Source of the DNA: an uncultured delta proteobacterium
GTDB lineage: Bacteria > Desulfobacterota > Binatia > UBA9968
Assembly (NCBI GenBank): GCA_963737905.1
Contig: CAVTUQ010000002.1
Span: forward strand, 128,001 to 192,000
Direction of reading: 5' to 3'
Length of the DNA stretch: 64,000 bases
Below are positions 49,219 to 63,447 of this stretch, one piece after another. Under the pieces are notes generated by a model. It was not told the origin of the DNA and made no database searches. It worked only from the letters and a program-made list of their open reading frames with translations. Position numbers and translations under genes: made by a program. Each line of letters opens with the position of its first letter. Position 1 is the stretch's first letter.

Positions 49219-50199
49219 TCAACTCATCGCGTTGGCAAACCCTCGGATCGTTTCTTCTCTGCTCCCGCCCGGAGCACTATAAGGAATAATCGCGATCTGC
49301 TGGATGCCAGTTTTTTTGATACGCTCGATCTGTGCGCGGCATTGATCGACCGTACCGGCGATGGCGAATTTATCTACGAGCCAGTCGGGAATGACCTCCG
49401 CGTGATTCGCCTGTTGATCCATGTGGTGATAGTAGTCGTAGGTTTTTCGGATCTCTTCCAAAACTTTCTGCTCTTTCGGATCAAGCACGTACGGCAGTGG
49501 ATGCGCCACGACGCGGGCAACATGCGCCTTCACGGCATCTTTAGCCGGAGATTTGTCTGAAACGGCGCAGGGAACCCATAGAACAAGATTGATATCCTCA
49601 AGTTTGCGTCCCGCTGCTTTGGCTCCTGCGGCGATCTTGTCTTTTGCGTGACCGACGTATTCGTCGGCGACGCCGACGAGCACGATAATTCCGTCGGCGA
49701 TGCGTCCGGAAAGTTCGAGCATCTTCGGCCCGCTAGCGGCGATGTAAATGGGAACTTTTCCTTTGCATGGATGCAGCAGGTGAATCTTACCCGTCTCAAG
49801 CTGGACTTCTTTGCCGGCGAAAAGATCGCGCATCTCCTGCATGGTCTTTTCGAAATAGGAAAGCTTCGCCGGTTTCATTCCCATGGTCTCGACGGAGCTG
49901 TCGCCCAGGCCGATGCCGACGATCATGCGGCCGGGAGAATATTCTTCCAACGTTGCATAGGCGCTGGCCAGAACCGACGGATGGCGCGTGAGCGGATTGG
50001 TGACACCGGTGCCGATCTTGACCTTGGAAGTATTCAAGGCAACGGCGGCCATATTGACGTAGGCCTCGCGCCAGATGAGGTGAGAGTCACCAATCCACAC
50101 GTGGCTAAAGCCGAGTTCCTCAGAAAGCCTGGCGAGATGAATTATCTTTTGTAGCGGTTCGGTCGGAAAAAGGCCGACGCCGAACTGGAAAGTGCTCAC
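49219..50199 (-). CDS. LLM-class (Mer-like) flavin/F420 oxidoreductase
   Basis: VWIGDSH, GTGVTNPLTRHP, PIYIAASGPKML. Confidence 0.85.
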   Translation of the reverse strand: MSTFQFGVGLFPTEPLQKIIHLARLSEELGFSHVWIGDSHLIWREAYVNMAAVALNTSKVKIGTGVTNPLTRHPSVLASAYATLEEYSPGRMIVGIGLGDSSVETMGMKPAKLSYFEKTMQEMRDLFAGKEVQLETGKIHLLHPCKGKVPIYIAASGPKMLELSGRIADGIIVLVGVADEYVGHAKDKIAAGAKAAGRKLEDINLVLWVPCAVSDKSPAKDAVKAHVARVVAHPLPYVLDPKEQKVLEEIRKTYDYYHHMDQQANHAEVIPDWLVDKFAIAGTVDQCRAQIERIKKTGIQQIAIIPYSAPGGSREETIRGFANAMS

Positions 50200-50212
50200 T
50201 AGACTTCCTCCT

Positions 50213-51386
50213 TCAACAGCAGGTTTCGCCGGCGACTCGTTCAGGCGGCGGCGTTTGTTGGCTCCGGCCGGCGACGCGAATTTCTCCGTCGATAATGACA
50301 TAAGAAATACCCGGCAGATCGCCCTTGGAGAACGAGTCCAGCGCGTCATGGGCAACGGACCCCGTGATCTTATGCATCAATACGATGTCCGCGGGCCGTC
50401 CTTCTTCGAGTATGCCGATGTCGAGCCCGTGCGCGCGTCCGACGTTTCCCGTAGCCATGCAAATGGTTTTTTCCGGCGACAACTCACCGACTGATGAAAT
50501 GAACGCGATCTCACGCAGGATCCCGCGTGGGATGACACCGGTTCCGCCCGGGGTGTCTGTGCCTATGAGAACGCGGTGATAGACCCCCTTTGCCTTGACC
50601 GCATGGATCAGACTCAAAGCCAAGCGGTAGTTGCCCGAGCTACAGATCTCGACAAAATATTCTGTCTCGTTGGCGATGCGAATCATCTCTGCTTCCGGCA
50701 TCGGGATCGGACCGCCCGTAATGTGGCCGATGATGTCCGGTTTGATTTTGTTTACAATTTCCCAGCCGGCGACTTGGCTAACGCCCGATCGTGAGACGCC
50801 CCCGGAGTGAATCTTCACTTTGATGCCGCGCGCATGCGCCCAGCTTACGTAGCGCTCCGCTTCGCCGTTCGGCAACAGACTGTAGTCGTAGAAGATAAAC
50901 TTTACCAATTTGATACCAAGAGACGCGATCTCATCGAAATCTTTTTCGGTCGAGTCCGGGAACTAAAAGCAGCGTACCGGCATGAACCTTCACCCCCGAC
51001 GGCCGCTGGTTGTCGTAGCAGCGTTTCGTAACGATCGCCACCGAAAGAGCCGTTCGCGCATCCGGCGGCAACGGCAGGCCGGGCAAATGCAGCTCGCCGG
51101 CGGAAATCAGAGCGGTCACCCCGCCATGCATGTAGTTGGTGATCCACGAGAGCGAGTTTTGTGCCGGTGTATATTCGCCGATGGATGGATGTGAATGGGA
51201 ATCGATCAATCCAGGAATCGCTGTGATGCCGTTGGCATCAATGACATGATCGGCTTTGCGGCTGATACCGTTGCCGATTTCTTTGACGACGGCGCCTTCA
51301 ATAAAAATGGAGTCCGCGCTGCGCAGCGGGCTCTCTAACTTTCCCGTAACCAAAGTACCGATGTTTTTGATCAGGATCGAAGGCAT
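50213..51386 (-). CDS. Amidohydrolase, enamidase-like; indel at ~50950
   Basis: IPGLIDSHSHP, GGVTALISAGE, HSGG, GHITGGP, GTDTPGG across two ORFs. Confidence 0.8.
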
Positions 51387-51512
51387 GCACGGACTATAGC
51401 AAAGCTTTTGCGGCAAAAAAACAAAGACGCTAGATCGTGACCAGACCCGGATCGATTCTTCAACGATCGTCAAAAATGATATCGTGAGTTTTAAGATGCA
51501 TCATCCAGCCTA

Positions 51513-54202
51513 TCACTTCAGTGCCGGACCCAAGACGACCTCTGCAAAATCATCCACTTTGATCCAGCGCGCAAATGCGGCTTGTACTTCGGCAGCCGTC
51601 AGTTCTTTATAGCGCTTCGCTGCCTGGATCGGTTCATCGAGCGGCAGATCCCTCAACGAACGATCGAGCAATCCGCCCGCAATGCCGCGCGTGCTTGATT
51701 CGGAGAGCGGTATGCCGCGCACCAGTAACGTCTTGGCTTGCACCAGCTCCTCAGAGGTGACCGGTTTCGTTTGCATCTCACGCAGGTTACGCTCCACAAG
51801 CACCCTGCGCCTTGGAGGTGTTAGGCGGATCGCAGGCATAAGACACAGTGAGGACGGAACGGTTCTTTCCAGATTGAAGTGCCGCGCCGACCGAATACAC
51901 CAAACCGGTGTTTTCCCTCAGGTCACGATACAGCCGAGTCGCATAGAACGCTCCGGAAAGAACGTTCATGCCAAGCTGAAGCGAATAATAATCCGCATCC
52001 TGGCGCGTCAGCTCGAAGGTCTGGCCAAGCGTCACGTCATCCTGCACCCGGCTACGATCAGGGACTAAAGTCGTCTTGGGCTGATTACGCGGCACCGGAG
52101 GAAGATCCGTCTCGGGCTTCGGCCCAGTTGCCTTCCATTCTCCAAAATATTTTTCCACGACGATCTTTGCCTGCTCGGGTGTCACCTTGCCGATAACGAC
52201 AATGGTTGTGAGATCCGGGCGTAAGACCTTTGCGTAATAAGCACGGACGTCTTCAAGCTCCAGGGACGACACGGTCTCCGGCGTTGCTTGGCGCAACGTC
52301 GGATCGTGCTCGGGAAAAATCGCTTGAAGCAGCGCGCGCTGGGAAAGGTAAATAGGACTTTGCAGACGGCCGGCCACCGCCTGACGGGTTCGCTGCTTTA
52401 CAGCCTTGAACGCCGCTTCGGGCAATGCGGGATGCAAGAGATTGTCCGCGAGCAGTTCGGTTCCCCGGTCGAAGCGATCCGCCAGCACCTGAAGCGAGAA
52501 GCGTGTTCCTGCCGTGACCTCGGCCGCGATCTCATCCAGCGCTTCCTGAAAGGCCACACGGTCCAGCTTCGTCGATCCGTAGGAGAAGAGGTCGTCGAGG
52601 ATTTGGTCGACTCCTTCTTTTCCTTCTGGCACCTCCAGCTCGGGACGGTTCTTAATTGCGCCGTAAATGCTGACCGTGTCACTGATGGTTTCCGGTTGGA
52701 CGATCAGGCGCACCCCGTTGGGTAGCACGGTCACCGTAGGGTTGACCTTCGACATCGGCACATCGAGAGGGTTTAATCTCCTCTTGGCCCAGGCCGGCAA
52801 CGGAACCGACTTCGTTTCCTTCGGTGCGAAAGACTCATTACCTGGACGGGAATTCTCTGATGCAACCGGATTACCGGATTCTTCTGGCGTCAATACCGCC
52901 ACGACCGCCGTGTCATTGGTGATATATTTCTTCGCGACCCGGTTCACGTCCGCAACCGTAACTTTCTTGATCGCCTCGATGTCATCGTCCGGCGAGCTGC
53001 GTCCCTCAATCGCCAGCGCCTGCGACCATTCTCGCGCGAGGCCTGAAATGGAATTTCTGCGAAATTCTGCATCGGCTATCTCGTGACGCTTGGCTGCTTC
53101 GATGAGATCGACGGGAATACCCCTCTTAAGGTATTCGTCAATTATTTGCTTCATCTCAGCGATCAATGCTGAGCTGTCTTGTCCCCGCGGGAACACCGCG
53201 TTGGCATAACCCAAGCCGGCTTTAGGAAGCGCGACGGCGTCGAAACCGGCGGAGAGAGCCTTTCCCTCGGCAGCCAAGGCGTACAAGTTTCCTCTCTGGC
53301 TGTCCAGCGCGTCGGCCAGAATTACGCCGGCGGCAAAATCCGGGTCGTCGTATCCCGGTAACCGATAAATCAACGCAGCCATTCCGTACGGGAGATCCGA
53401 GTCGATTTGAATGGTTGTGCTCTTCAGAGGCCGCAGTTGGATCTTGGGACGTGGGGGCACGACGCGGCGTGGAATCGGTTCGAACAACCGCTTGATCGTT
53501 GCCAAAGCGGCCGTGGGATCCACATCACCGACTATGACCAGGATCGCATTGTTGGGCGCGTACCATTTCTGGTGAAAGTTTTTTAGCATTTTCCCCGTTG
53601 TCTTTTGGAATGAGGGACGCGTGCCAAGGGCATCGTGCGCGTAGGGCGTTCCGGCAAAGATAACGCCGAGGAGCCGGGAGTAAAACATGTATTGCGGATT
53701 GGACAGATCCCGCGCGACCTCCTGCTCGATAGCGCCTCGTTCCTGTTTCCAGAGGTCTTCGGTGTTCAGCACGTCACGCATGCGGATGGCCTCGATATTA
53801 AGCGCGATTTCAAGATCGCTTGCCGGGACCGTGAAGTAGTATTGCGTGACCGCCTGCTGAGTGTTGGCGTTAAACCTGCCGCCCATCGCGGCGATGAGGT
53901 TGGAAAGCTGAGCCGACGAAAGACCCGGGCTGCCGCGAAACATCATATGCTCCAGGGCATGCGCCATTCCTGGAAAACCCTCCGGCGCTTCGTTCGAACC
54001 CACCAAATAGTTAATCTCCGTCGTGACCACGGGCGCCAGTGTGTTGCGGACGATCACCACGCGGAGGCCGTTTTTCAGTGTCGCGCGTGTGACATTCGAT
54101 GCCGTTGCGGGCTGAGCCGGCGCGGTAGTATGGCTTAGCACAACGGCCAGTATCAGCCCACATCCTATGAAGTCGCAAGATTTTTTTCTGATGATCGCGC
54201 AT
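51513..54202 (-). CDS. M16 family zinc peptidase (two-lobed, secreted); indels near both ends
   Basis: GMAHALEHMMFRGS (HxxEH), YAPNNA, RLYRDLRENTGLVY. Confidence 0.88.
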
Positions 54203-54214
54203 CGTTACATTCCT

Positions 54215-54990
54215 TTATCCGGACTCCAGCATGGCTACTAACAGCATCAACCCAACACCCACCGCTATCGCAATGAGTTGTATGATAGATTTTAACAGAT
54301 CCGATTCCTTGTTAAGTTCGGGCACCAGATCAGAGCCCGCGATATAGATAAAGCCGCCGGCTGCTAAAGGGAGCATCAACGAAGAAAAATGCTCTACTCT
54401 GGAACTCACCAGGAGAGCGACAATGGTCCCCAAGATCGCAAACAGAGCTGATATGAAATTAAAAAAGATGGCTCTTGCTTTTGAGAAACCGGCGTACAGT
54501 AAGACGAAGAAGTTACCCAGTTCGTGTGGGATTTCATGAAAGATAACAGCAGTGGTAGTCGCGATGCCAACGGGAAGACTTACCAAATACGACGCTCCAA
54601 TAATCATCCCGTCGATAAAATTGTGGACGCCATCAGCGAGCAAATTCATATAGCCGACCGGACGAATGGGATTGTTGGCCTCCAATGTGTGCTGATGTCT
54701 CCAGAGCAGAAATTTCTCTAAAATAAAGAATGCGAATATGCCGGCCAAAAGATAAAGCGAGGCTTCGATATTTGCGTCAAATTTTGCAAACGCCTGTGGT
54801 AGTAAATGGATGAATGCATCGCCGAATAAACTGCCGACGGCGAGGCTGACCATAACAAAAATTATCCTTTTCAGCGTCTGTTCTCTGATTGAGATGAAGG
54901 CGATACCCACCAGTGAAAGAAGGCTCACCAAGACGACGCTGACCAGGCTATAAAACCATGCGACCGGCGTAGCTTCCGCCTTTTCATCCA
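54215..54990 (-). CDS. ZIP family metal transporter (start uncertain)
   Basis: GDAFIHLLP, DGVHNFIDG, HEIPHELG, FIYIAGSDL. Confidence 0.9.
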
Positions 54991-56432
54991 GTGAACAGAT
55001 CGCGCACGACTTCTTTAACCGAATCGGTATAGGCCAGTCCGAGATTGGTCGCGGCGGGCGTGGGAACGGCGCGTTGAATCCGTCTCTCCCACAGCACAGT
55101 CCCATCATCAATCCGTATGAGCTTGAAATCAACGAAGACTCGCATGAACTTTTGCGACTCACCTTCCCAACGCCAGATCTCGCTGACGAAGACCAAGCCT
55201 GAAAGTTTTCCCTCACGAGCCATCCGAACAGCCCCATTCATGTCGGCGGGGAAAGCCGGAAAGCGCGGATCCATTTCTTCGGGAAGGGTAACTAGGTAAC
55301 CGTTTTGCTCCAACCCCTTGCGCAAGTCCTCACGCAACAAATCCATCACGCTCTGTCGGTAGTCGGAGGAAATCTTTCCTGCCATCTCTGCAAGGGAGCG
55401 TAGCGGATTTGTCGCCGGTAAAAGTAAAGGCAAGGCGGTGCTGTTCTTCACTTTTGCCAACCAAACTTGCTCTTTCTTAATGTCTTTCACTTGCGGCACC
55501 GGCGCAGAAGGCGTTCTCGTGGCGCAACTGGTAACCGCTCCGCCAACAAAAATCAGCATCAACAGCGCCGCACCTATTTTGGTTGGGACGCGGCTTAATC
55601 CGTAGGCTAGAAAGATCAGACAGCAGCCTAGGGTCACATCGGTGGGCCCCAAAGGAAGGTCCAAACGCACGGAGCTGTAGAAACCCAAAAAGGCCATAAT
55701 CACTCCCAGTATGGACGATAGTATCAAAAAAGAGCTCATCCGGCTCACCAAGGGCCGCGCCGCGAGCGCCGGCAGCACCAAGAACCCAAAAATCAACTGA
55801 GGCCCCGCCATGATCACTCCAAAAGCGATGATCAATCCGGCGAGAAGATAGAGCAACACATCCCAGATCACTTGACGCCCTTTCAAAAGAAACGCCAAAT
55901 CACGATCGAAAGAGGTCAAGAGAAATTCCCGGCGAAATATCAGCATCGCTACAAATACGACCCCAAAGACACCGATCAGTAGCCTCAGTTCGCCTTTGGA
56001 CAGCGCGATGACCTCACCCTTCAAGAGACTGAGAACTTCGATCTGGCCGGCTGGATTGAAGACTAAAAAGAGGATGGTCAATGCTCCGGCGAAAGCATAG
56101 GCAGCGGCCAGGCGACCTTCCGGGAAGCCTTTCCCGCGCTGTTCCAGATAGCCGAGTAACCCCATTCCTAAAAAAGTAAACACAAGCGAGCCGACCATAG
56201 CAATGCCGCGTTCACTCTCTCTAAGCTGTGGCAAGAGACCAGCCTGCTGCAACCAGAAAGTAAAAGAGACTCCGGCAGCGGCGATTTCCGGGAGCGTCAG
56301 TCCAAGGAATATCGTGCGCCGAAGGACCAGGTAAGAACCGATCAGCGGACACACTAACCCCATGATCATGGTACCTACGAGCGCAGGAAAAAGCAGATAA
56401 GAAGGATTCACAATTTCAAACAAAGTGCTCAT
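54984..56432 (-). CDS. ZnuB-like metal ABC permease fused to a C-terminal lipoprotein-like domain
   Basis: IGSYLVLRR, SFDRDLA, FGFLVLPA, LDLPLGP; then GAVTSC and a ~175-aa soluble domain in the same frame. Confidence 0.8.
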   Translation of the reverse strand: MSTLFEIVNPSYLLFPALVGTMIMGLVCPLIGSYLVLRRTIFLGLTLPEIAAAGVSFTFWLQQAGLLPQLRESERGIAMVGSLVFTFLGMGLLGYLEQRGKGFPEGRLAAAYAFAGALTILFLVFNPAGQIEVLSLLKGEVIALSKGELRLLIGVFGVVFVAMLIFRREFLLTSFDRDLAFLLKGRQVIWDVLLYLLAGLIIAFGVIMAGPQLIFGFLVLPALAARPLVSRMSSFLILSSILGVIMAFLGFYSSVRLDLPLGPTDVTLGCCLIFLAYGLSRVPTKIGAALLMLIFVGGAVTSCATRTPSAPVPQVKDIKKEQVWLAKVKNSTALPLLLPATNPLRSLAEMAGKISSDYRQSVMDLLREDLRKGLEQNGYLVTLPEEMDPRFPAFPADMNGAVRMAREGKLSGLVFVSEIWRWEGESQKFMRVFVDFKLIRIDDGTVLWERRIQRAVPTPAATNLGLAYTDSVKEVVRDLFTG

Positions 56433-57160
56433 GGCTGGTCACTCACTTTCTTCTCTTGCAACCAGATTTTTCCCTTGTCCACGCGAACGATTTTGTCGGC
56501 AACTCGCTGCACCATTTCAAGGTCGTGACTGGAAAAGAATAACGCCAACCCATTAACTCGGGTCAGGTGAATTAAAAGTTCCGCGATGGTCTTACGAGAT
56601 TCCTCATCCACACCGGACAGCGGCTCGTCTAGAATCATGATCTTCGGCTTGACCATCAAGGCGCGAGCAATAAGAATCCGCTGCTTTTGCCCGCCGGAGC
56701 ACGCAAAAAAAGATTTCGTCACAAGGTGGCGCATGCCGACTTGCTCTAAAACCTGGCTGGTTCTTTCCTTTTCTTCAGAGGGAAGGAATTGATACGAGCG
56801 CACGCGGCCGTAGGCTCCCATCTCCACGATCTCTCTCACGCTCAAGGGAAAGTGAGGATCGAGCGCGGCGCTTTGAGGCACATAGCCAAATTCCGATAAT
56901 GCGCAGTGTCGAGAAATAGAGCCGCCGAGAATCGGCAGAAGTCCGAGGATAGCGCGGAAAAGCGTCGTCTTGCCCGAACCGTTCGGACCGGCCACGCCAA
57001 TAAGGTCGCCTGGAGAAATCGTCACGTTTACGCCGTGAAGAACCGGCGTCGAATCGTAACCCAAGCTGACATCCTGAAGCGAAACCAGAGGGAGAGGCTC
57101 ATCTTTCGATACTCTCCCTCCGGCACTTTGTATTCCGTCGATATCTTGTCCCAACTTCAT
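56429..57160 (-). CDS. ZnuC-like metal ABC ATPase
   Basis: GPNGSGKT, GYVPQ, SGGQKQR, LDEP, SHDL. Confidence 0.9.
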   Translation of the reverse strand: MKLGQDIDGIQSAGGRVSKDEPLPLVSLQDVSLGYDSTPVLHGVNVTISPGDLIGVAGPNGSGKTTLFRAILGLLPILGGSISRHCALSEFGYVPQSAALDPHFPLSVREIVEMGAYGRVRSYQFLPSEEKERTSQVLEQVGMRHLVTKSFFACSGGQKQRILIARALMVKPKIMILDEPLSGVDEESRKTIAELLIHLTRVNGLALFFSSHDLEMVQRVADKIVRVDKGKIWLQEKKVSDQP

Positions 57161-57164
57161 GCCT

Positions 57165-58095
57165 CTAACTGACCGACTGAACTAAGGTACGTACAGTATA
57201 ATCAATCCATTTAATATAGGTATCGGTTTCCGGCTGGTTTCCTCCGCCGCTGTAAAGACGCAGAACCTTGATGCCTGTTTCGGCAGAAATTTGCTCGGGG
57301 AACCGCGGATTCTGAGCACCATAAATTAGCAACTGGGCTTTATCTTGCTTGATCTGCTTGTACCAACTGCACTATATGATTTGGCGTCGGCTCAATTCCA
57401 GGCTTTAACTCAATGCTCCCTATCCGCTTCATGCCAAATCGATCAGCAAAATAAATCCATTCCGGATGATACTCGACATATTTGACCCCCCGTAGAGGAA
57501 CCGCCATTTTTTCCCAGCGCGCAATCCAGCTATCCAGCTCCGCCATATAGGCTTTTAGATTTTTATCAAAGGCTTGCTGATGCTGGGGATAATTACGCGA
57601 GAGGCCGTCGGCGATGTTCTTCGCGACGATTTTCGCTCTCACAGGGTCCAAGAGATAGTGAGGATTTCCCTTCGGGTGAAGGTCGCCTTCCGACCGGTCC
57701 ACGAGTGTGGGAGCCTCGAGCACCGGAACTCCCACGGAACAATCTATATAGCCTGGCCGCCCTAGAAGAATTTTAGGATTATTTGCCACCTCCAAAAGCG
57801 CTGGGAGCCAGGAATGTTCGTCATCCAAGCCAATCAAGACCAGCACGTCTGCTCGGTTTAGCCTGGGTACAAAGCTCGGTTTCATGGGAACACCGTGAGG
57901 ATCCTCGACTCCCGTCGCTAGACTATCTGCAGTCACCAACTCTTTACCGATCTGCCGGGTAATATCAGCCAAATCTGGCAACGTCGCCACGACACGGATT
58001 TGCTGCGCGAAGACTAAACCGGTTTGCAGCCAAACCAATGCGAGCGATATGAAAAACACCTTCCAGTTTTTACTTCTCAACAGTTTCATCTTCAT
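57165..58095 (-). CDS. ZnuA/TroA-like metal-binding protein; indel at ~57360
   Basis: EDPH, GDLHPKGNPHYLLDP, YHPEW, KPGIEPTP; C-terminus continues in another frame to TAG at 57165. Confidence 0.85.
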
Positions 58096-58119
58096 AAACG
58101 TACTCCTTCTTATAGAGCT

Positions 58120-59416
58120 CTAACGGGTGAGGAACCCGTGGGTATGAGCGCCGATCACAGTCGTCCATTGGAGAAAAAATTGATTGCCTTTCTCGGCTTT
58201 GTCCGCTTTAAAATTATTGCTCAAATAGCTGTATTGAAAACGCAGTCGGTTAAATTCGCTGACGTTCCAGGTCAAGTACGGCGAATAGCTGAGCGTCCTC
58301 TGGCCTGAGTTATCAACCACCGGAGCGTAATCGAAGAGAAATCCAGTGGCCCAATTCTTGTTCAACTTGAGATCGACGTAACTGTAGCCGCCATAGGATT
58401 GTTGGCGCTTACCCACAGTGCGCGTTTCCAAAATACTCGGGTCATCCTCATTTGGAACCTCGATGTCAAACGGGAAAGCGCTCGCTGTTGGCATAGAATT
58501 CACTCCCCCACGTCAAACCCTGATAAACCGAGCTGCCGAGCGGTTGGTAACGATAAGTCAGATCAACACCGTTGAGCATCCGAGCGCCGCCAGAGGCATC
58601 ACCTGCGAGTCGCACCGAAGGCGTGTAGGCAAGGCTCGTACCTAATTCAATACTATGATTATCCGTGAGATCAAAATAAGTATTGAGCCTTCCGAGATAA
58701 GTAAACTGACTCCCGGACCGCAGCACTGTATTGTCGATTCGATCGTTGCCCTCTCCCATCTTGTTCATTGCGCCGAATGTCGCTCTCATGAAAAAAGGCG
58801 TCGGAAAAAGATAATACAATTCCGCCCCGTCCGCCTGCGTTTCGCCTCCCACCATCCGCTCGATAGAAAGCGGCTCGTTAACAAAAGGCAGCTCATGCTC
58901 ATGGTACTTGGGAAAGCGCCCGAAATCGGCCAAGAAACGACCTCCTTTGGCCGTCAGGTTATACGGGAGAGAAGTGGTGATCGCCGCGGCTTCATCTATC
59001 TCTACGCCATCCTTTGTACCGTTGATAAAACTATACATCCTCGCAAACGGATCTATTGAAGCCGCAATGCCGAACTCAGCACTGCGAAAATCAAAAAGGC
59101 CTCCGGCTGTGCCGCGCTTTTGGACATTGGCATCGAGCACAAGACCCATGGAGGGATTGAGCGCGCTGGGCGCGCTCTGAACCGCCTGGACCGATTTTTC
59201 CACCTGGCCCAGCCTAGCGGAGCTGGAAGATTTTTCCTTTTCCAACTGGTCAATTCGATCCAAAGCGTTCTTCAATTGATTCTGCATTTCCCCCAGTTGT
59301 TTCTTAAGTGCCTGAGTCGCATCTTCCTGTGACAGTCCCACTCTCGGAAACAAGATCACCAAGCATAATACAAATAACGCGGATGTGGTTTGCAATCTAG
59401 TTTGACATAAATCCAT
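58120..59416 (-). CDS. Outer-membrane beta-barrel/porin associated with metal uptake; indel at ~58470
   Basis: Signal peptide, coiled coil, IDPF, YHEHELPF, SEFNRLRFQY, C-terminal IGAHTHGF. Confidence 0.75.
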
Positions 59417-59498
59417 AAATCCACCCCCTACAAAAACAGGTATCTACCCCTCCCAACCAGGGAAGGGAAAATTAATAAATTTACGCGTGAAGGAAGAA

Positions 59499-59801
59499 TT
59501 ACAGAGGGAGTGAAGATGGAGGCGCGCGAACCGCGGGAGACTTTATTGAAAGCGCACCAAAAACTTGAGCTTCATGAGTCGTAATGGAGAAAATCTGAAG
59601 AGAGGGACTGTGCTCAGCTAGCGCTGAAGTTAATCCTGCGTGGATTCGCGTTCCATGATAGCAGCTACATTCATTGCCGACTCGTGCGGTCGAATTGAAA
59701 AAATGGAGGTGTAAAGGCAGAAAGAAAACAAAGAACAGGACTATTGCCGCGACGACACGGCGAGTGGTTGGACCCTTCTCCTTGAAAAATCGAAAGGACA
59801 C
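59499..59801 (-). CDS. RAPP-motif leader/arrest peptide A (100 aa, DUF2946/CutF-like logic)
   Basis: Basic N-terminus, hydrophobic segment, LPLHLH, CSC, C-terminal RAPP (59517-59528); paralog at 62823..63113. Confidence 0.75.
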   Translation of the reverse strand: MSFRFFKEKGPTTRRVVAAIVLFFVFFLPLHLHFFNSTARVGNECSCYHGTRIHAGLTSALAEHSPSLQIFSITTHEAQVFGALSIKSPAVRAPPSSLPL

Positions 59802-59808
59802 GGTCCCA

Positions 59809-59837
59809 AGGCTAGTCAAGCGGTAGCGGGTTGTCAA
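59809..59837 (-). promoter_or_regulatory. Sigma70 promoter of leader A
   Basis: TTGACA-17nt-TAGCCT, 7 nt before the in-frame GTG. Confidence 0.65.
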
Positions 59838-59885: not shown

Positions 59886-59949
59886 TCGACAATCATTTTC
59901 ACATCACTCATCAGATAGCAGGTTTGTCGGATTGCGAATTGTTTGCAAT
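59886..59949. promoter_or_regulatory. Candidate Fur-family operators
   Basis: TCGACAATCATTTTCAC (59886-59902) and the IR ATTGCGAA-TTG-TTTGCAAT (59931-59949). Confidence 0.35.
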
Positions 59950-60612: not shown

Positions 60613-61467
60613 CTACCTCCACGCGCCAACTATAGAAGACGCCGATGCGTCATTTGTCCGAGAGTTCCCAAGCTGAAAACGTCTTCAATCGTGCGCAGAA
60701 GGCTGTAGTGGTTGTAGGCGGTTTTGGAGACGCTACCGGAGAGGACCGAATCCCCTATTAGAGCCGTGAAGACGCGGTTGCTCGGATCATTGTCTTCTGC
60801 CTCGTCGAACGTGATGACAAACAACAACCCGTTCATGAAGGCAGAATTCTTCAGCCGAGGGCCAAAGGCCTTCGCTAACCAGCGATCAGCGAAGGCGGGT
60901 CCGGTGTGGTGCCCATCGTTTCTCTGGTCGGGGATATACAAAGAATAATCCGGTAGATTCCCGCTCGCCGCGTCGGAAGTGAGGGCGGATGCGTCAACAA
61001 TCTTGGCGCAGCGAGATGGATCTTTCTGTATGTTCTTGAAGCTCAGAAATGGCACATGTTTGCGTACGTAGTCGCCCGATCGATCTCCGAGAAAACAAAG
61101 TCCGGGATAAGCTTCGGCGTAAACCTTCCATGTCTTACCCTTTGCTTCTAGGAGATCACCGATATGGCGCAAGTTTAGGCTCACCGGTCCGTTAGACGTC
61201 ACACCGGCCGTGGTTCCTGCGGTCAGCGCTATATAGTTCGGCAGCGAGGGATGTGCCTCGGCATAGAATTCACTCAGGAGTGCGCCGCTTTTGGCCAAGT
61301 TGCCAAGGAAAGGCTGGACCAGAGCATCTCTATAATTGGCGTTCTCCAAGATACTGAACATTGCTTGCTCAAACCGCGTCAAAGAGCGGATCCTTCGGCT
61401 CAGCTCCATGCGCCAAAGCGATGGGGAGAAGTAAAACGGCAGCAATCCCAACCAAGTGTCTTTTCAT
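60613..61467 (-). CDS. Secreted phosphoesterase (acid phosphatase/PLC family); indels near both ends
   Basis: ILENANY, HPSLPNYIAL, YVRKHVPF, NDGH, ITFDE, YNHYSLLRTIE. Confidence 0.85.
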
Positions 61468-61487
61468 GATAACGGCTAGCGTTAACT

Positions 61488-62039
61488 CTAATGACTCAGG
61501 CCTCCGCGATACTTTTGCCACGCGGCAATCCCCGCTTGCGCTGCCTTCTCGTCAATGCCGGACGGCAAGCCCGACACGCCGACGGCGCCGACCAGGCGGT
61601 TGTTAACAATGAGAGGCAGTCCGCCGGAAACGATGTAGACTTGGCCCGGCCACATATTCATGATGCCGTAGAATCGGTTGGGGGCGGTCGTCATGAGTTC
61701 CGCTACCGCCGCGCTTGGCTGTCGGGAAATGATCGATGTGAATGCTTTGCCCTTGGCCTGATGCTCCGAGTTGAACGAGGTGCCGTCCATCCGATCCACC
61801 GAGACCACGTGCCCCCCATCATCCAGCACAGCGACCGCCATGCGCATTTTCAAGTTCCGGGCATGAGCAACCGCGCCCTCAATGATGATGCGCGCTTCCG
61901 CCAGCGGAATCGAAGATGACGACACGATGGGATTTGACGGCGGAGCGGTTGGCTCGGCCGCTGAAGCAACGCCACTGTTACCGGCCGATCCGAAAATCAG
62001 TAACAGACCAAGTAACGGCAAAAACCGAAAACTTTTCAT
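61488..62039 (-). CDS. GlcG/HbpS family heme-binding protein, secreted
   Basis: AVAVLDDGG...RMDG...KAFTS...GGLP...GAVGVSG; AGGAGG RBS. Confidence 0.85.
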   Translation of the reverse strand: MKSFRFLPLLGLLLIFGSAGNSGVASAAEPTAPPSNPIVSSSSIPLAEARIIIEGAVAHARNLKMRMAVAVLDDGGHVVSVDRMDGTSFNSEHQAKGKAFTSIISRQPSAAVAELMTTAPNRFYGIMNMWPGQVYIVSGGLPLIVNNRLVGAVGVSGLPSGIDEKAAQAGIAAWQKYRGGLSH

Positions 62040-62117
62040 AGCACGCCTCCTTTTTGAACAAAGTCTTGAATAGGAGAAAACCTTGGGGATCGCCATCGTA
62101 CACCCTATTTTCTTTCT

Positions 62118-62612
62118 TTACGTACTGCCGTTGGCTTTCGCTACATTTACGACACGGCGCGCGCCCAAAAACCTCTTGGCGTACCACGGCTGGTTGAGAT
62201 CAGTGATGATCACCCGCCCGGCCTTTTTCTCGGCATGTAAGAATTGATGATGGCCCATATAGACACCTACATGAGTAGGTGTGTTACCCTCAGATGAAAA
62301 AAACACCAAGTCGCCAGTTTCCAAACTGTCCATCGGAACTTCCTCGCCGGCCTCAATTTGGTCACGCGAAGTCCGTGGCAGCTCGATGTGCAGTTTAGCG
62401 AAAATCATTTTGACTAAACCCGAGCAGTCCGCGCCCCGACGCTCCGACATTCCTCCCCAGCGATACGGTAGCCCCAGAAAGGTACGAGCCGCTTTCGCTA
62501 ATTTGTAACGAACCGCCTGAGACACGGGAGTGGACTCCTCCGGAAAACAAACCGCCTTGGAAAGAAGCAGGCTCAAAACAAGAAATAAAACCATTATGTA
62601 TAGTCGTTCCAT
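62118..62612 (-). CDS. NlpC/P60 (C40) peptidase
   Basis: LGLPYRWGG, DCSGLV, LPRTS, GDLVFF, HVGVY, FLHA. Confidence 0.92.
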   Translation of the reverse strand: MERLYIMVLFLVLSLLLSKAVCFPEESTPVSQAVRYKLAKAARTFLGLPYRWGGMSERRGADCSGLVKMIFAKLHIELPRTSRDQIEAGEEVPMDSLETGDLVFFSSEGNTPTHVGVYMGHHQFLHAEKKAGRVIITDLNQPWYAKRFLGARRVVNVAKANGST

Positions 62613-62822: not shown

Positions 62823-63113
62823 CTAGAGAATAGGAGGTGCGCGGGCTAATTCAGACTCGATGGTAACTTGAACAGGAGCTTCCGTTATGCGGACGATTAA
62901 GAACGACACCCCAGCGGAAGGACCGAGAATAGCAGCTGCTGGAGCCAAGTCCATCTGAACGCGACCGCCGTAACAGCAGCAAGCGCAGTCCTCGCTCACC
63001 TTTGGGTTAGCGGGAAAATGAATATGAAGAGGCAGGAAGAAGACGAACAACAAGATCGCCGCGCTTAAAAGACGGCTGACCTTGTGCGACTTCTTTAGGC
63101 AGAGAATAAACAC
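62823..63113 (-). CDS. RAPP-motif leader/arrest peptide B (96 aa)
   Basis: Hydrophobic segment, LPLHIH, CACCC, C-terminal RAPP (62832-62843). Confidence 0.75.
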   Translation of the reverse strand: MFILCLKKSHKVSRLLSAAILLFVFFLPLHIHFPANPKVSEDCACCCYGGRVQMDLAPAAAILGPSAGVSFLIVRITEAPVQVTIESELARAPPIL

Positions 63114-63120
63114 GCCCTTG

Positions 63121-63149
63121 AACCTAAACAATGCGTTCTTCGATGTCAA
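63121..63149 (-). promoter_or_regulatory. Sigma70 promoter of leader B
   Basis: TTGACA-17nt-TAGGTT, 7 nt before the in-frame GTG. Confidence 0.65.
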
Positions 63150-63447
63150 TGAAAAAACCAAAACGATCGGCCGACGCATTCACTGGCGGCGTTTATTGCG
63201 AAGGCAGCTCAAAATCACGTTTTGGCGGGGGCTCAATATCGTCCTGGTCCCTCGCCATGAAATCTGAGAAACAGAGATGCTCGGTAGTGAAATGAGCCGC
63301 TTTATCGGCAGATACCTGGACTGGAGCCAAGTCCCATTTTCGGCAACCGAGTGCCATGGGAGGCCGTACCACGGATTACATTCTTTAGGAACGTGCGCCC
63401 TCGCCGTGACGGGATGAAAGGGAAGCAAAGTCGAGGCAGCGGCACAG

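Follow-up and report, generated by a model that had tools for sequence, protein, structure and literature searches.

The 64,000-nucleotide stretch of DNA analysed here (the window: contig CAVTUQ010000002.1, positions 128,001 to 192,000 of the forward strand, assembly GCA_963737905.1 of an uncultured delta proteobacterium of the Binatia) carries a set of metal-uptake genes headed by a short open reading frame (ORF), here called leader ORF 1, and raises the question of what this small gene does at the head of an uptake operon. The initial annotation had described a 100-aa ORF with a hydrophobic segment, an HLH and a CSCYH motif and a RAPPSSLPL end, located 82 nt before six co-oriented genes, and all of these elements are present; the 82 nt separate the stop of the leader (59499, in the numbering of the window) from the ATG (59416) of the first gene, which encodes a porin-like protein. 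The evidence described below indicates that the 100-codon gene is probably a regulatory leader and not a structural protein. It is also rather likely to be a metal-sensing arrest leader, with zinc as the probable metal, in which a ribosome stalled at the RAPP end would unmask the Shine-Dalgarno sequence (SD) of the porin-like gene and metal would release the stall and switch uptake off.

The leader and its family

When read from its GTG codon, leader 1 has the sequence VSFRFF...LFFVFFLPLHLHFF...NECSCYHG...VRAPPSSLPL. Basic residues at the N-terminus are followed by one hydrophobic stretch ending in LPLHLH, then by ECSCYHG eleven residues further on, a linker of 44 residues and the VRAPPSSLPL end, with RAPP placed five codons ahead of the stop (tail SSLPL). 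This reading of 100 aa agrees with the usual length in the family (96–101 aa). In the AlphaFold2 model, built with an alignment of 136 sequences, a single helix (residues 13–37) accounts for the hydrophobic stretch behind the basic residues and may act as a cleaved signal or as a signal anchor, the remainder is coil (predicted TM-score 0.31) and no globular domain is predicted. The reading frame of the leader is intact in the assembly, unlike those of several of the genes that it precedes.

A word-indexed search returned nine close homologues in which LFFVFFLPLHxH, CxC, G and RAPP are invariant. The initial annotation had proposed a homologue profile together with a tabulation of the downstream genes; the profile, searched against 1.84 billion representatives, retrieved 142 clusters (50% identity) at E<=1e-3, of which 112 at <=1e-10, mostly of 96–101 aa. 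The set of 149 family proteins used below comprises the two of the window, the nine of the word-indexed search and the rest from the profile search. The family was matched in 67 of the 123 genomes of the order (by taxonomic family: f1, 63/89; f2, 3/5; f3, 0/28); four of these 67 are unpublished genomes (G051, G054, G073, G093), which are used in no other claim and without which the count is 63/119. The genome to which the window belongs (6.7 Mb in 46 contigs, 87% complete) holds exactly two leader copies, both in the window. Across 201 genomes of the rest of the phylum the family profile gave, besides these two copies, only one weak match (E 3.6e-5) with one internal stop. The family thus appears restricted to the Binatia among the genomes searched. 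Named records that carry the leader are metagenome-assembled genomes labelled Candidatus Binatia, 'Deltaproteobacteria', 'Syntrophobacteraceae' and, in one case, 'Candidatus Acidiferrales'. A protein atlas returned Verrucomicrobiota clusters without a name and a DUF2607 cluster (score 0.94, 168–169 shared features against a guide value of 170); DUF2607 itself is matched by one of 136 family members, at E 0.017.

The conservation of RAPP in homologues, which the initial annotation had made a test of its proposal, was borne out: R[A/G/S]PP is found at most 14 residues from the C-terminus in 136 of the 149 proteins, as RAPP in 110, RGPP in 22 and RSPP in 4. The 13 proteins that lack it include N-terminal fragments, partial matches, one LGPP, one RDPP and two with RAPP 14–16 residues from the end. 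R-P-P is invariant by construction in the alignment that was selected on the motif (A2), so that 136/149 is the unbiased figure. The tail that follows PP is short, with 5 residues in 80 of the 136, 2 in 28, 3 in 11, 4 in 11, 6 in 4 and 8 in 2. A six-frame scan of the whole window for R[AG]PP within 12 residues of a stop gave 8 matches, 6 of them in frames of 15–25 codons; since only the two leaders are long ORFs among these matches, and since the motif is kept in most of the family, the RAPP endings go beyond chance. Judged from the aligned proteins, nothing else in the leader family is as strongly conserved as the RAPP end.

The potential metal ligands are conserved as well, and so is their distance from the motif. 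P-x-H-x-H is present in 130 of 136 proteins, with HxH located 10–12 residues before CxC. The spacing between CxC and the Arg of RAPP is 44 residues in 127 of 133 proteins, 45 in five and 42 in one. With positions counted from this Arg (n=130), Glu is found at -48 in 109 proteins, Cys at -47 in 123 and at -45 in 127, Gly at -42 in 117, Arg at -40 in 108 and Pro at -26 in 94. The length of the 44-residue linker is therefore fixed, while the remainder of its sequence is free and poorly conserved.

These data bear on whether leader 1 could simply be a small membrane protein, an accessory subunit or a metallochaperone of the porin/Znu system, with RAPP playing a structural role or being coincidental. 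Such a protein would also be expected to conserve its His and Cys residues and its membrane anchor, and stalling is itself a prediction; yet it would leave unaccounted for a motif that is the most conserved part of the family and always stands 2–8 residues from the stop, a linker whose length is fixed though its sequence is free, the lack of a predicted fold and the selection at the RNA level seen in the last codons (see below). RAPP and RGPP are, moreover, strongly avoided in proteomes according to PMC12992588. We consider an ordinary membrane protein barely probable.

Genes preceded by the leader

The downstream genes were tabulated from about 10 kb of sequence per region, in 40 regions that stem from 38 genomes of this order; with the window added, the sample has 41 regions and 47 leader copies. 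The four unpublished genomes, matches at contig ends and weak matches were left out of this sample. The porin-like gene comes next in 40 of the 47 copies (as first or second ORF of a crude ORF caller), and Znu genes lie within five ORFs in 38 of these 40, the contigs of the other two ending too early. Without exception the copies with a five-residue tail (36) are porin-linked, and the remaining 7 of the 47 precede NlpC/P60 or small genes of unknown function. ZIP and M16 genes were each found in only 9 of the 41 regions. The conserved cargo is the porin plus ZnuACB, and ZIP and M16 are variable; of the porin-ZnuACB-ZIP-M16 unit put forward in the initial annotation, the first four genes hold across relatives and the last two do not.

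The porin-like product has no match in Pfam or NCBIfam. An orthologue from the same genus was modelled with AlphaFold2 (predicted local distance difference test, 73.4) as N-terminal helices followed by a beta-barrel, and a Foldseek search with this model retrieved OmpT(Vc), Omp32, OprP, OprO and OmpF (E 7e-11 to 1e-9, TM-scores 0.5–0.69). The first cargo gene is hence predicted to encode a porin fold, with general and phosphate porins as best matches. The next three genes show the features of an importer of the ZnuABC/AztABC type (Cluster A-I), namely a substrate-binding protein with the ZnuA fold, an ATP-binding cassette (ABC) ATPase and an ABC-3 permease (PF01297, PF00005 and PF00950). The permease carries a conserved C-terminal extension of ~200 aa (54984–55560) that matches no family; the median length of its orthologues is 482 aa.

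Three lines of evidence make zinc the likeliest cargo of this importer. The best names in NCBIfam are ZnuA, AztC, AztA, AztB and ZupT. The best solved relatives of an intact orthologue of the ZnuA-type protein are zinc binders (AdcA, Synechocystis ZnuA, YcdH and Lmb), which come ahead of manganese and iron proteins. Three His residues of this orthologue align with His positions of AdcA which we take to be its zinc ligands; a third His in place of Glu marks zinc-type substrate-binding proteins.

A signal other than metal was also considered, either membrane insertion or Sec capacity (as in SecM) or the thiol-disulfide state of the periplasm, monitored through CxC. Arrest peptides that are released by force all require a hydrophobic helix at the N-terminus, a pulling force based on a disulfide is part of the model for CutF in 10.1101/2025.02.05.636593, and CxC alone is not a classic zinc motif. 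What speaks against such a signal is the cargo, a metal importer, together with the joint conservation of HxH and CxC at 10–12 residues from each other. No Sec/YidC or Dsb gene was found as cargo in the 47 leader copies, and no Sec/YidC gene among the downstream ORFs that could be classified (by similarity to window genes and by Pfam scans of cluster representatives, which did not cover small clusters or singletons). We hold this alternative to be very doubtful.

Other genes recur further downstream: an amidohydrolase in 22 of 41 regions, a luciferase-like oxidoreductase in 18 and a cation-efflux protein in 5. In the window an amidohydrolase and a luciferase-like (F420-type) oxidoreductase lie behind the operon on the same strand (49219–51473, minus strand). 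In one genome (L072, G083:C4:73500-92800) three leader copies lie within 10 kb. Downstream of one of them are three short ORFs of unknown function (162, 176 and 190 aa) and a further ABC ATPase, whose partner has 422 aa.

Predicted pairing of the leader end with the porin ribosome-binding site

In the minimum free energy (MFE) fold of the window sequence the codons for Pro-Pro-Ser-Ser-Leu-Pro-Leu at the end of leader 1 pair with the SD and the AUG of the porin-like gene and enclose a hairpin formed by CCCTTCCC and GGGAGGGG. The same design was looked for in 43 non-redundant loci with a five-residue tail, all of which have a strong SD (43/43) behind a spacer of 73–111 nt. The leader-end/SD pairing is present in most of them, as is an intergenic hairpin of the form CCCUCCC...GGGAGGG. 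Per-sequence measures were used because the register of the helix shifts between loci. The last 24 nt of the leader, from the first Pro codon to the stop, form the best duplex with the SD region of 37 ORF windows in 26 of the 43 loci and rank among the top three in 31, with a median of -15.2 kcal/mol as compared to -8.8 kcal/mol for control windows. In contigs of relatives the hairpin contains single inserted bases, both in its loop and in its 3' arm (window 59446–59456), which means that the length of the intergenic hairpin differs between close strains.

The codons of the tail point to the same region. Where tail codon 4 encodes Ser it is TCN in 34 of 34 cases, and where tail codon 5 encodes Leu it is CTN in 28 of 28, while elsewhere in the same leader ORFs AGY makes up 38% of the Ser codons and TTR 26% of the Leu codons. 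This choice at the end of the ORF argues for selection on the RNA, with the proviso that related genomes are not independent.

Counted from the P-site codon of a ribosome stalled at RAPP, the duplex extends from about +5 to +19, and the footprint of the stalled ribosome, which reaches to +15, would take in a median of 75% of its pairs. The median cost of opening the region from SD to AUG is 12.4 kcal/mol in the free RNA, 8.0 kcal/mol with the stall site covered and 6.4 kcal/mol with a terminating ribosome. The stall site is thus predicted, from pairing and codon bias though with no covariation, to overlap an mRNA element that faces the SD of the downstream gene.

The same arrangement could work with the opposite polarity, as in CutF, where copper induces stalling (10.1101/2025.02.05.636593). 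In that scenario metal would prolong the stall, and either the genes would be on at high metal or a ribosome parked before the anti-SD segment would keep the SD masked and the operon off. Several loci have their strongest pyrimidine stretch (codons x4–x5) between +16 and +21, level with the front of the stalled ribosome or past it, and the SD stays partly paired in the stalled model. The bulk of the masking pairs (75%) nevertheless lies inside the stalled footprint; in the paralogue described below the Pro codons themselves pair with the SD, and in the characterised cases compared, CruR and CutF, a stall switches the downstream gene on. There would also be no point in activating importer genes (porin, ZnuABC and ZIP) when metal is plentiful. 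This polarity is regarded as unlikely.

Alternatively, the leader might act through transcription, which is the mechanism of CruR as given in PMC9426467: a stalled ribosome would shield a C-rich, unstructured stretch from Rho or would block the hairpin as a terminator, and its release would terminate transcription before the porin-like gene. The end of the leader and the first ~45 nt of the spacer are indeed pyrimidine-rich and G-poor, and a GC-rich hairpin followed some bases later by a U-rich sequence is common (for example in L015). The U-run is usually 5–10 nt off the stem, however, a terminator scan called none at that place in the window, and a Rho mechanism would have no need of specific complementarity between the leader end and the SD. 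As the main read-out, termination seems quite unlikely, although Rho or terminator action and masking of the SD are not mutually exclusive.

Probable start of the leader transcript

Both leaders of the window fit one promoter scheme, TTGACA-17-TAGCCT-7-GTG for leader 1 and TTGACA-17-TAGGTT-7-GTG for its paralogue. TTGAC[ATG] is found at a fixed relative place upstream of the leader in 39 of 42 upstream regions, and a strict -35/spacer/-10 pattern was matched in 25 of 43 loci. The frame is open in 24 of these, and their first start codon in frame (GTG in 17, ATG in 7) lies 5–9 nt past the -10 element in 18 and 1–2 nt past it in 6. The similarity of the type 'L-T...' seen upstream of the GTG in profile searches is the promoter read as protein. 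The position of the start codon right behind the -10 element suggests a leader mRNA that is leaderless or nearly so, with the start codon at or near its 5' end and no space for a riboswitch in a 5' untranslated region.

A candidate Zur box, TGAAAATGATTGTCG (59887–59901, minus strand), was noticed ~50 nt upstream of TTGACA, with two mismatches from the 7-1-7 palindrome of the actinobacterial Zur-box consensus. Because the best match in the other 42 loci has 4–7 mismatches, this 15-mer was rejected as a conserved operator.

Proposed mechanism

We propose the following scheme. Transcription would probably start from the conserved TTGACA promoter, either right at the start codon or shortly before it. 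The nascent leader would insert its hydrophobic helix in the membrane, with HxH placed at the outer face and CxC threaded after it. At RAPP the ribosome would stall and cover the Pro codons together with the following ~12–15 nt; since CxC is 44 residues behind the stall site, it would at this point be just out of the ribosome. The covered bases would be those that pair, in the free mRNA, with the SD and AUG of the porin-like gene, and during the stall this gene and the ZnuACB genes would be translated. A metal, most likely Zn(II), would then be bound by the two His and two Cys residues, the nascent chain would be pulled or folded and the stall would be released. The ribosome would end five codons further on, the mRNA would refold and the uptake genes would be off, so that metal present means uptake off, as in the logic of CruR. 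The geometry that we infer here (the helix in the membrane and CxC 44 residues behind the peptidyl-transferase centre) and the release of the stall by metal are predictions, and polarity and metal are the weakest steps of the model.

Several observations weigh against this scheme. The data leave the direction of the switch, release by metal or CutF-like induction by it, unconstrained; the metal is read from the neighbouring genes only, all NCBIfam matches of which fall below the equivalog cut-offs, and frameshifts interrupt three of the six cargo genes as assembled. In the protein, the ~25 residues ahead of RAPP are weakly conserved whereas some arrest peptides require specific upstream residues, and stalling by the four members with RSPP, the one with LGPP and the one with RDPP is putative. 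In the RNA, the fold of the window's own leader end has a z-score of just -1.8, and in 17 of the 43 loci another ORF window pairs as well as the leader end or better. The SD still costs a median of 8.0 kcal/mol with the modelled stall and would not be fully freed. When the leader end is shuffled with its composition preserved, the cost drops no further than from 12.4 to 11.0 kcal/mol (with a higher value for the natural sequence in 33/43). RNAalifold, run on a MAFFT alignment of the 43 leader-end/spacer sequences, found no consensus pairs and gave no covariation proof. Lastly, a consensus promoter scan of the window called no promoter at leader 1.

The second leader and other features of the window

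The initial annotation had mentioned a second paralogue, and this copy is real: leader ORF 2 ends in ARAPPIL, at 62823, and is 34% identical to leader 1 (E 4e-15). It precedes a gene for an NlpC/P60 peptidoglycan endopeptidase. In the MFE fold of its 3' end and the 210-nt spacer, the codons for Ala-Pro-Pro (ACCUCC) pair with the SD (GGAGGU) of this gene; the fold has a z-score of -3.63, and none of 200 shuffles folds as well. A leader next to an NlpC/P60 gene is also seen in three other loci, L063, L065 and L072. Leader 2 would apply the same switch to the NlpC/P60 gene.

The genes between the two leaders (60630–62612, minus strand) encode the NlpC/P60 cysteine endopeptidase, a DUF336-like protein, an acid-phosphatase-like phosphoesterase and a 221-aa protein of unknown function, all on the same strand and leading into leader 1. 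The gene for the 221-aa protein is also found beside leaders in L063, L065 and L072. As a speculation, the genes between the leaders could be zinc-independent stand-ins for zinc enzymes. A wider and more tentative possibility is that this order of the Binatia controls zinc import by a nascent-chain sensor, instead of or on top of a DNA-binding Zur. The mRNA would be leaderless and its promoter constitutive-looking, HxH and CxC would capture periplasmic Zn(II), a pull on the 44-residue linker would end the RAPP arrest and re-mask the ribosome-binding site, and the paralogous leader, by controlling a cell-wall hydrolase (NlpC/P60) that does not depend on zinc, would extend the system into a translational zinc-sparing regulon. 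We rate this as doubtful.

The frameshifts in the assembly were examined separately. The porin, ZnuA, M16 and amidohydrolase genes each align end-to-end with an orthologue of the same genus across a single frameshift. Short-read contigs 93–99% alike from four soil-metagenome runs of one study are without one base at 58471 (4 runs), 57356 (3 runs) and 51808 (4 runs). The frameshifts are hence most simply explained as indel errors of the assembly or as strain-private changes, and a pseudogenised operon was rejected as the likeliest reading, the contigs of relatives being one base shorter exactly at these three sites. The coordinates of all features are collected in Table 1.

Table 1. Features of the leader loci and of the metal-uptake operon, in window coordinates.
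Feature	Position	Strand	Remarks
Leader ORF 1	59499..59801	(-)	GTG start 59801, 100 aa; in-frame TTG 59837 would give 112 aa
Promoter-like element, leader 1	59809..59837	(-)	TTGACA 59832-59837, 17-nt spacer, TAGCCT 59809-59814; GTG 7 nt on
H31-L-H33	59703..59711	(-)	Outer end of hydrophobic helix; family motif P-[LFIVM]-H-x-H
C45-S-C47 (CxC)	59661..59669	(-)	Glu before; x-H-G-x-R-T after
RAPP codons, leader 1	59517..59528	(-)	Predicted stall site
Five tail codons and stop, leader 1	59499..59516	(-)	Pyrimidine-rich anti-SD segment
Intergenic hairpin	59447..59467	(-)	CCCTTCCC-TGGTT-GGGAGGGG
SD and ATG of porin-like gene	59414..59428	(-)	SD GGGGGTGG 59421-59428; ATG 59414-59416
Outer-membrane porin-like gene	58120..59416	(-)	Split by one frameshift near 58471
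ZnuA-type substrate-binding protein	57165..58095	(-)	PF01297, E 6e-38; frameshift near 57356
ZnuC/AztA-type ABC ATPase	56429..57160	(-)	PF00005, NCBIfam
ZnuB/AztB-type permease (ABC-3)	54984..56432	(-)	PF00950 over residues 13-276 of 482
ZIP/ZupT-type transporter	54215..54907	(-)	PF02535; ZupT below cut-off; far end approximate (~54907)
M16 (insulinase-type) peptidase	51513..54141	(-)	PF00675 and PF05193; frameshift near 51808
Frameshift sites	58471, 57356, 51808, about 50940-50959		Porin, ZnuA, M16 and amidohydrolase genes
Leader ORF 2	62823..63113	(-)	96 aa, GTG 63113, ends ARAPPIL; stop-to-stop 62823-63179
Promoter-like element, leader 2	63121..63149	(-)	TTGACA 63144-63149, 17-nt spacer, TAGGTT 63121-63126; GTG 7 nt on
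NlpC/P60 peptidoglycan endopeptidase gene	62118..62612	(-)	Downstream of leader 2

Novelty and comparison with known arrest leaders

The initial annotation had taken both the family and its context to be undescribed, and this has to be divided. Metal-sensing RAPP leaders and RAPP/RGPP upstream ORFs before metal genes are already known, and because exported proteins with RAPP/RGPP before metal genes are treated as a class in PMC12992588, the leader class is less new than first thought. What appears new is a family with HxH and CxC that is invisible to PF11162, its zinc-type porin-ZnuACB cargo, its restriction to the Binatia and a second copy on a cell-wall hydrolase. In a literature search of main texts no paper with 'RAPP motif' also contained 'zinc' or 'ZnuA', although contexts of this sort may be listed in Table S1 of PMC9426467 and in the appendix figures of PMC12992588; a search for Binatia or Binatota together with leader peptide or translation arrest returned nothing relevant.

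Metal-sensing arrest peptides have so far been demonstrated for copper only, with CruR and CutF. A zinc-linked family with two His, two Cys and the same ruler from Cys to RAPP would carry the mechanism over to the other main system of transition-metal uptake and would, if confirmed, give the first zinc-responsive arrest peptide. The shared spacing of ~45 residues would suggest a physical constant of the path through ribosome and translocon, and the ruler of 44–45 residues held in common with CruR would become a general design rule. It would also provide a compact and portable zinc-responsive translational switch, and would explain how an uncultured soil lineage could regulate zinc import. For annotators, 'hypothetical proteins' of this kind, of ~100 codons, would be regulatory elements.

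The leader is best seen as a probable zinc-linked relative of CruR and CutF, two leader peptides that sense copper. Bordetella pertussis CruR (Bp2923), the prototype of Pfam DUF2946/PF11162, heads a copper-uptake operon and has its CXXC and RAPP motifs 45 residues apart; the operon is on during the stall, which is released when the nascent chain perceives copper (PMC9426467). As reported there, the spacing of 45 is kept to 1–2 residues in more than 2000 DUF2946 proteins and altered spacing impairs regulation. The leaders described here share with CruR a small, in their case putatively exported, upstream ORF at the head of a metal-uptake operon in which the outer-membrane transporter comes first, a Cys motif, a linker of fixed length (45 residues in CruR, 44 here), RAPP a few residues from the stop and, as adopted in our scheme, the same logic. 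Of the features of DUF2946, the family has the C-terminal RAPP 2–8 residues from the stop, the spacing of ~45 and the place at the head of a metal operon, which is zinc-like and not copper.

Membership in DUF2946, the family of CruR and CutF, is not supported by sequence. An hmmscan with PF11162 matched none of 11 members at E<=10 and one of 136 at E 0.11, which agrees with the distinct HxH/CxC family postulated in the initial annotation. In the window's genome no copy of PF11162 was found over the cut-off, and 201 genomes of the phylum gave two matches, both spurious-looking (a non-ORF and an anti-sigma-like protein). CxC and a membrane-proximal HxH take the place of CXXC, the cargo is a porin and a zinc-type ABC importer instead of a TonB receptor for copper, and the read-out resembles masking of the SD and not Rho termination. 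The protein has 100 aa as against 145 aa, and its hosts are Binatia whereas those of CruR-like proteins are mostly Proteobacteria. The family would work like CruR but, by its sequence and Cys motif, is not filed in DUF2946.

By type, the leaders fall in the class described in PMC12992588. There RAPP and RGPP are reported to cause robust arrest in varied contexts, to be avoided in proteomes and to be over-represented at the C-terminal ends of small exported proteins whose genes precede Sec or metal genes; the small ORFs before metal-homeostasis genes include SLIV_16130 and SLIV_18480 of S. lividans. Like the family of the window, these are small secreted or membrane proteins with a C-terminal RAPP/RGPP and conserved Cys/His before metal genes, and they are proposed as metal sensors. 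In its main text the genes named are those for TonB receptors, YcnI, PCu(A)C, PepSY and copper resistance, and zinc, porin and ABC transporter are mentioned 0 times; its appendix figures may list more groups.

SecM, ApdA, ApdP and other Sec/YidC-linked peptides resemble the leaders in that a small ORF with membrane targeting has an R-A-P/G-P core shortly ahead of its stop codon, but they monitor and regulate the protein-localisation machinery, whereas here a His/Cys site is combined with a metal-uptake cargo. Monitoring substrates of that kind, MifM and VemP included, are encoded ahead of secA, secDF or yidC, a position not seen for the leaders among the downstream ORFs that were classified. 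The residue ahead of the Arg is Ile in 57 of 136 family members, a feature presumably shared with SecM, which we take to carry IRAGP. The stall geometry adopted above, with RAP in the P site and P in the A site and the first Pro codon in the P site, is that of PMC10951233.

CutF of Rhodobacter capsulatus provides the counterpart at the RNA level. With copper, its translation comes to stall at prolines, and the stem-loop that covers the SD of the following gene is melted (10.1101/2025.02.05.636593). As far as that source describes it, the likeness would comprise a co-translationally exported leader, a periplasmic Cys motif, a C-terminal proline stall and an mRNA structure that hides the SD, while the stall of CutF occurs at PPP, depends on EF-P, is induced by copper and serves a detoxifying oxidase, as opposed to RAPP/RGPP and an importer here. 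The metal motif also differs, being CXXXC in CutF and E-C-x-C in the present family. By analogy with both systems, the leaders of the Binatia would thus join the architecture and ruler of CruR to the SD-masking read-out of CutF, with an importer as cargo.

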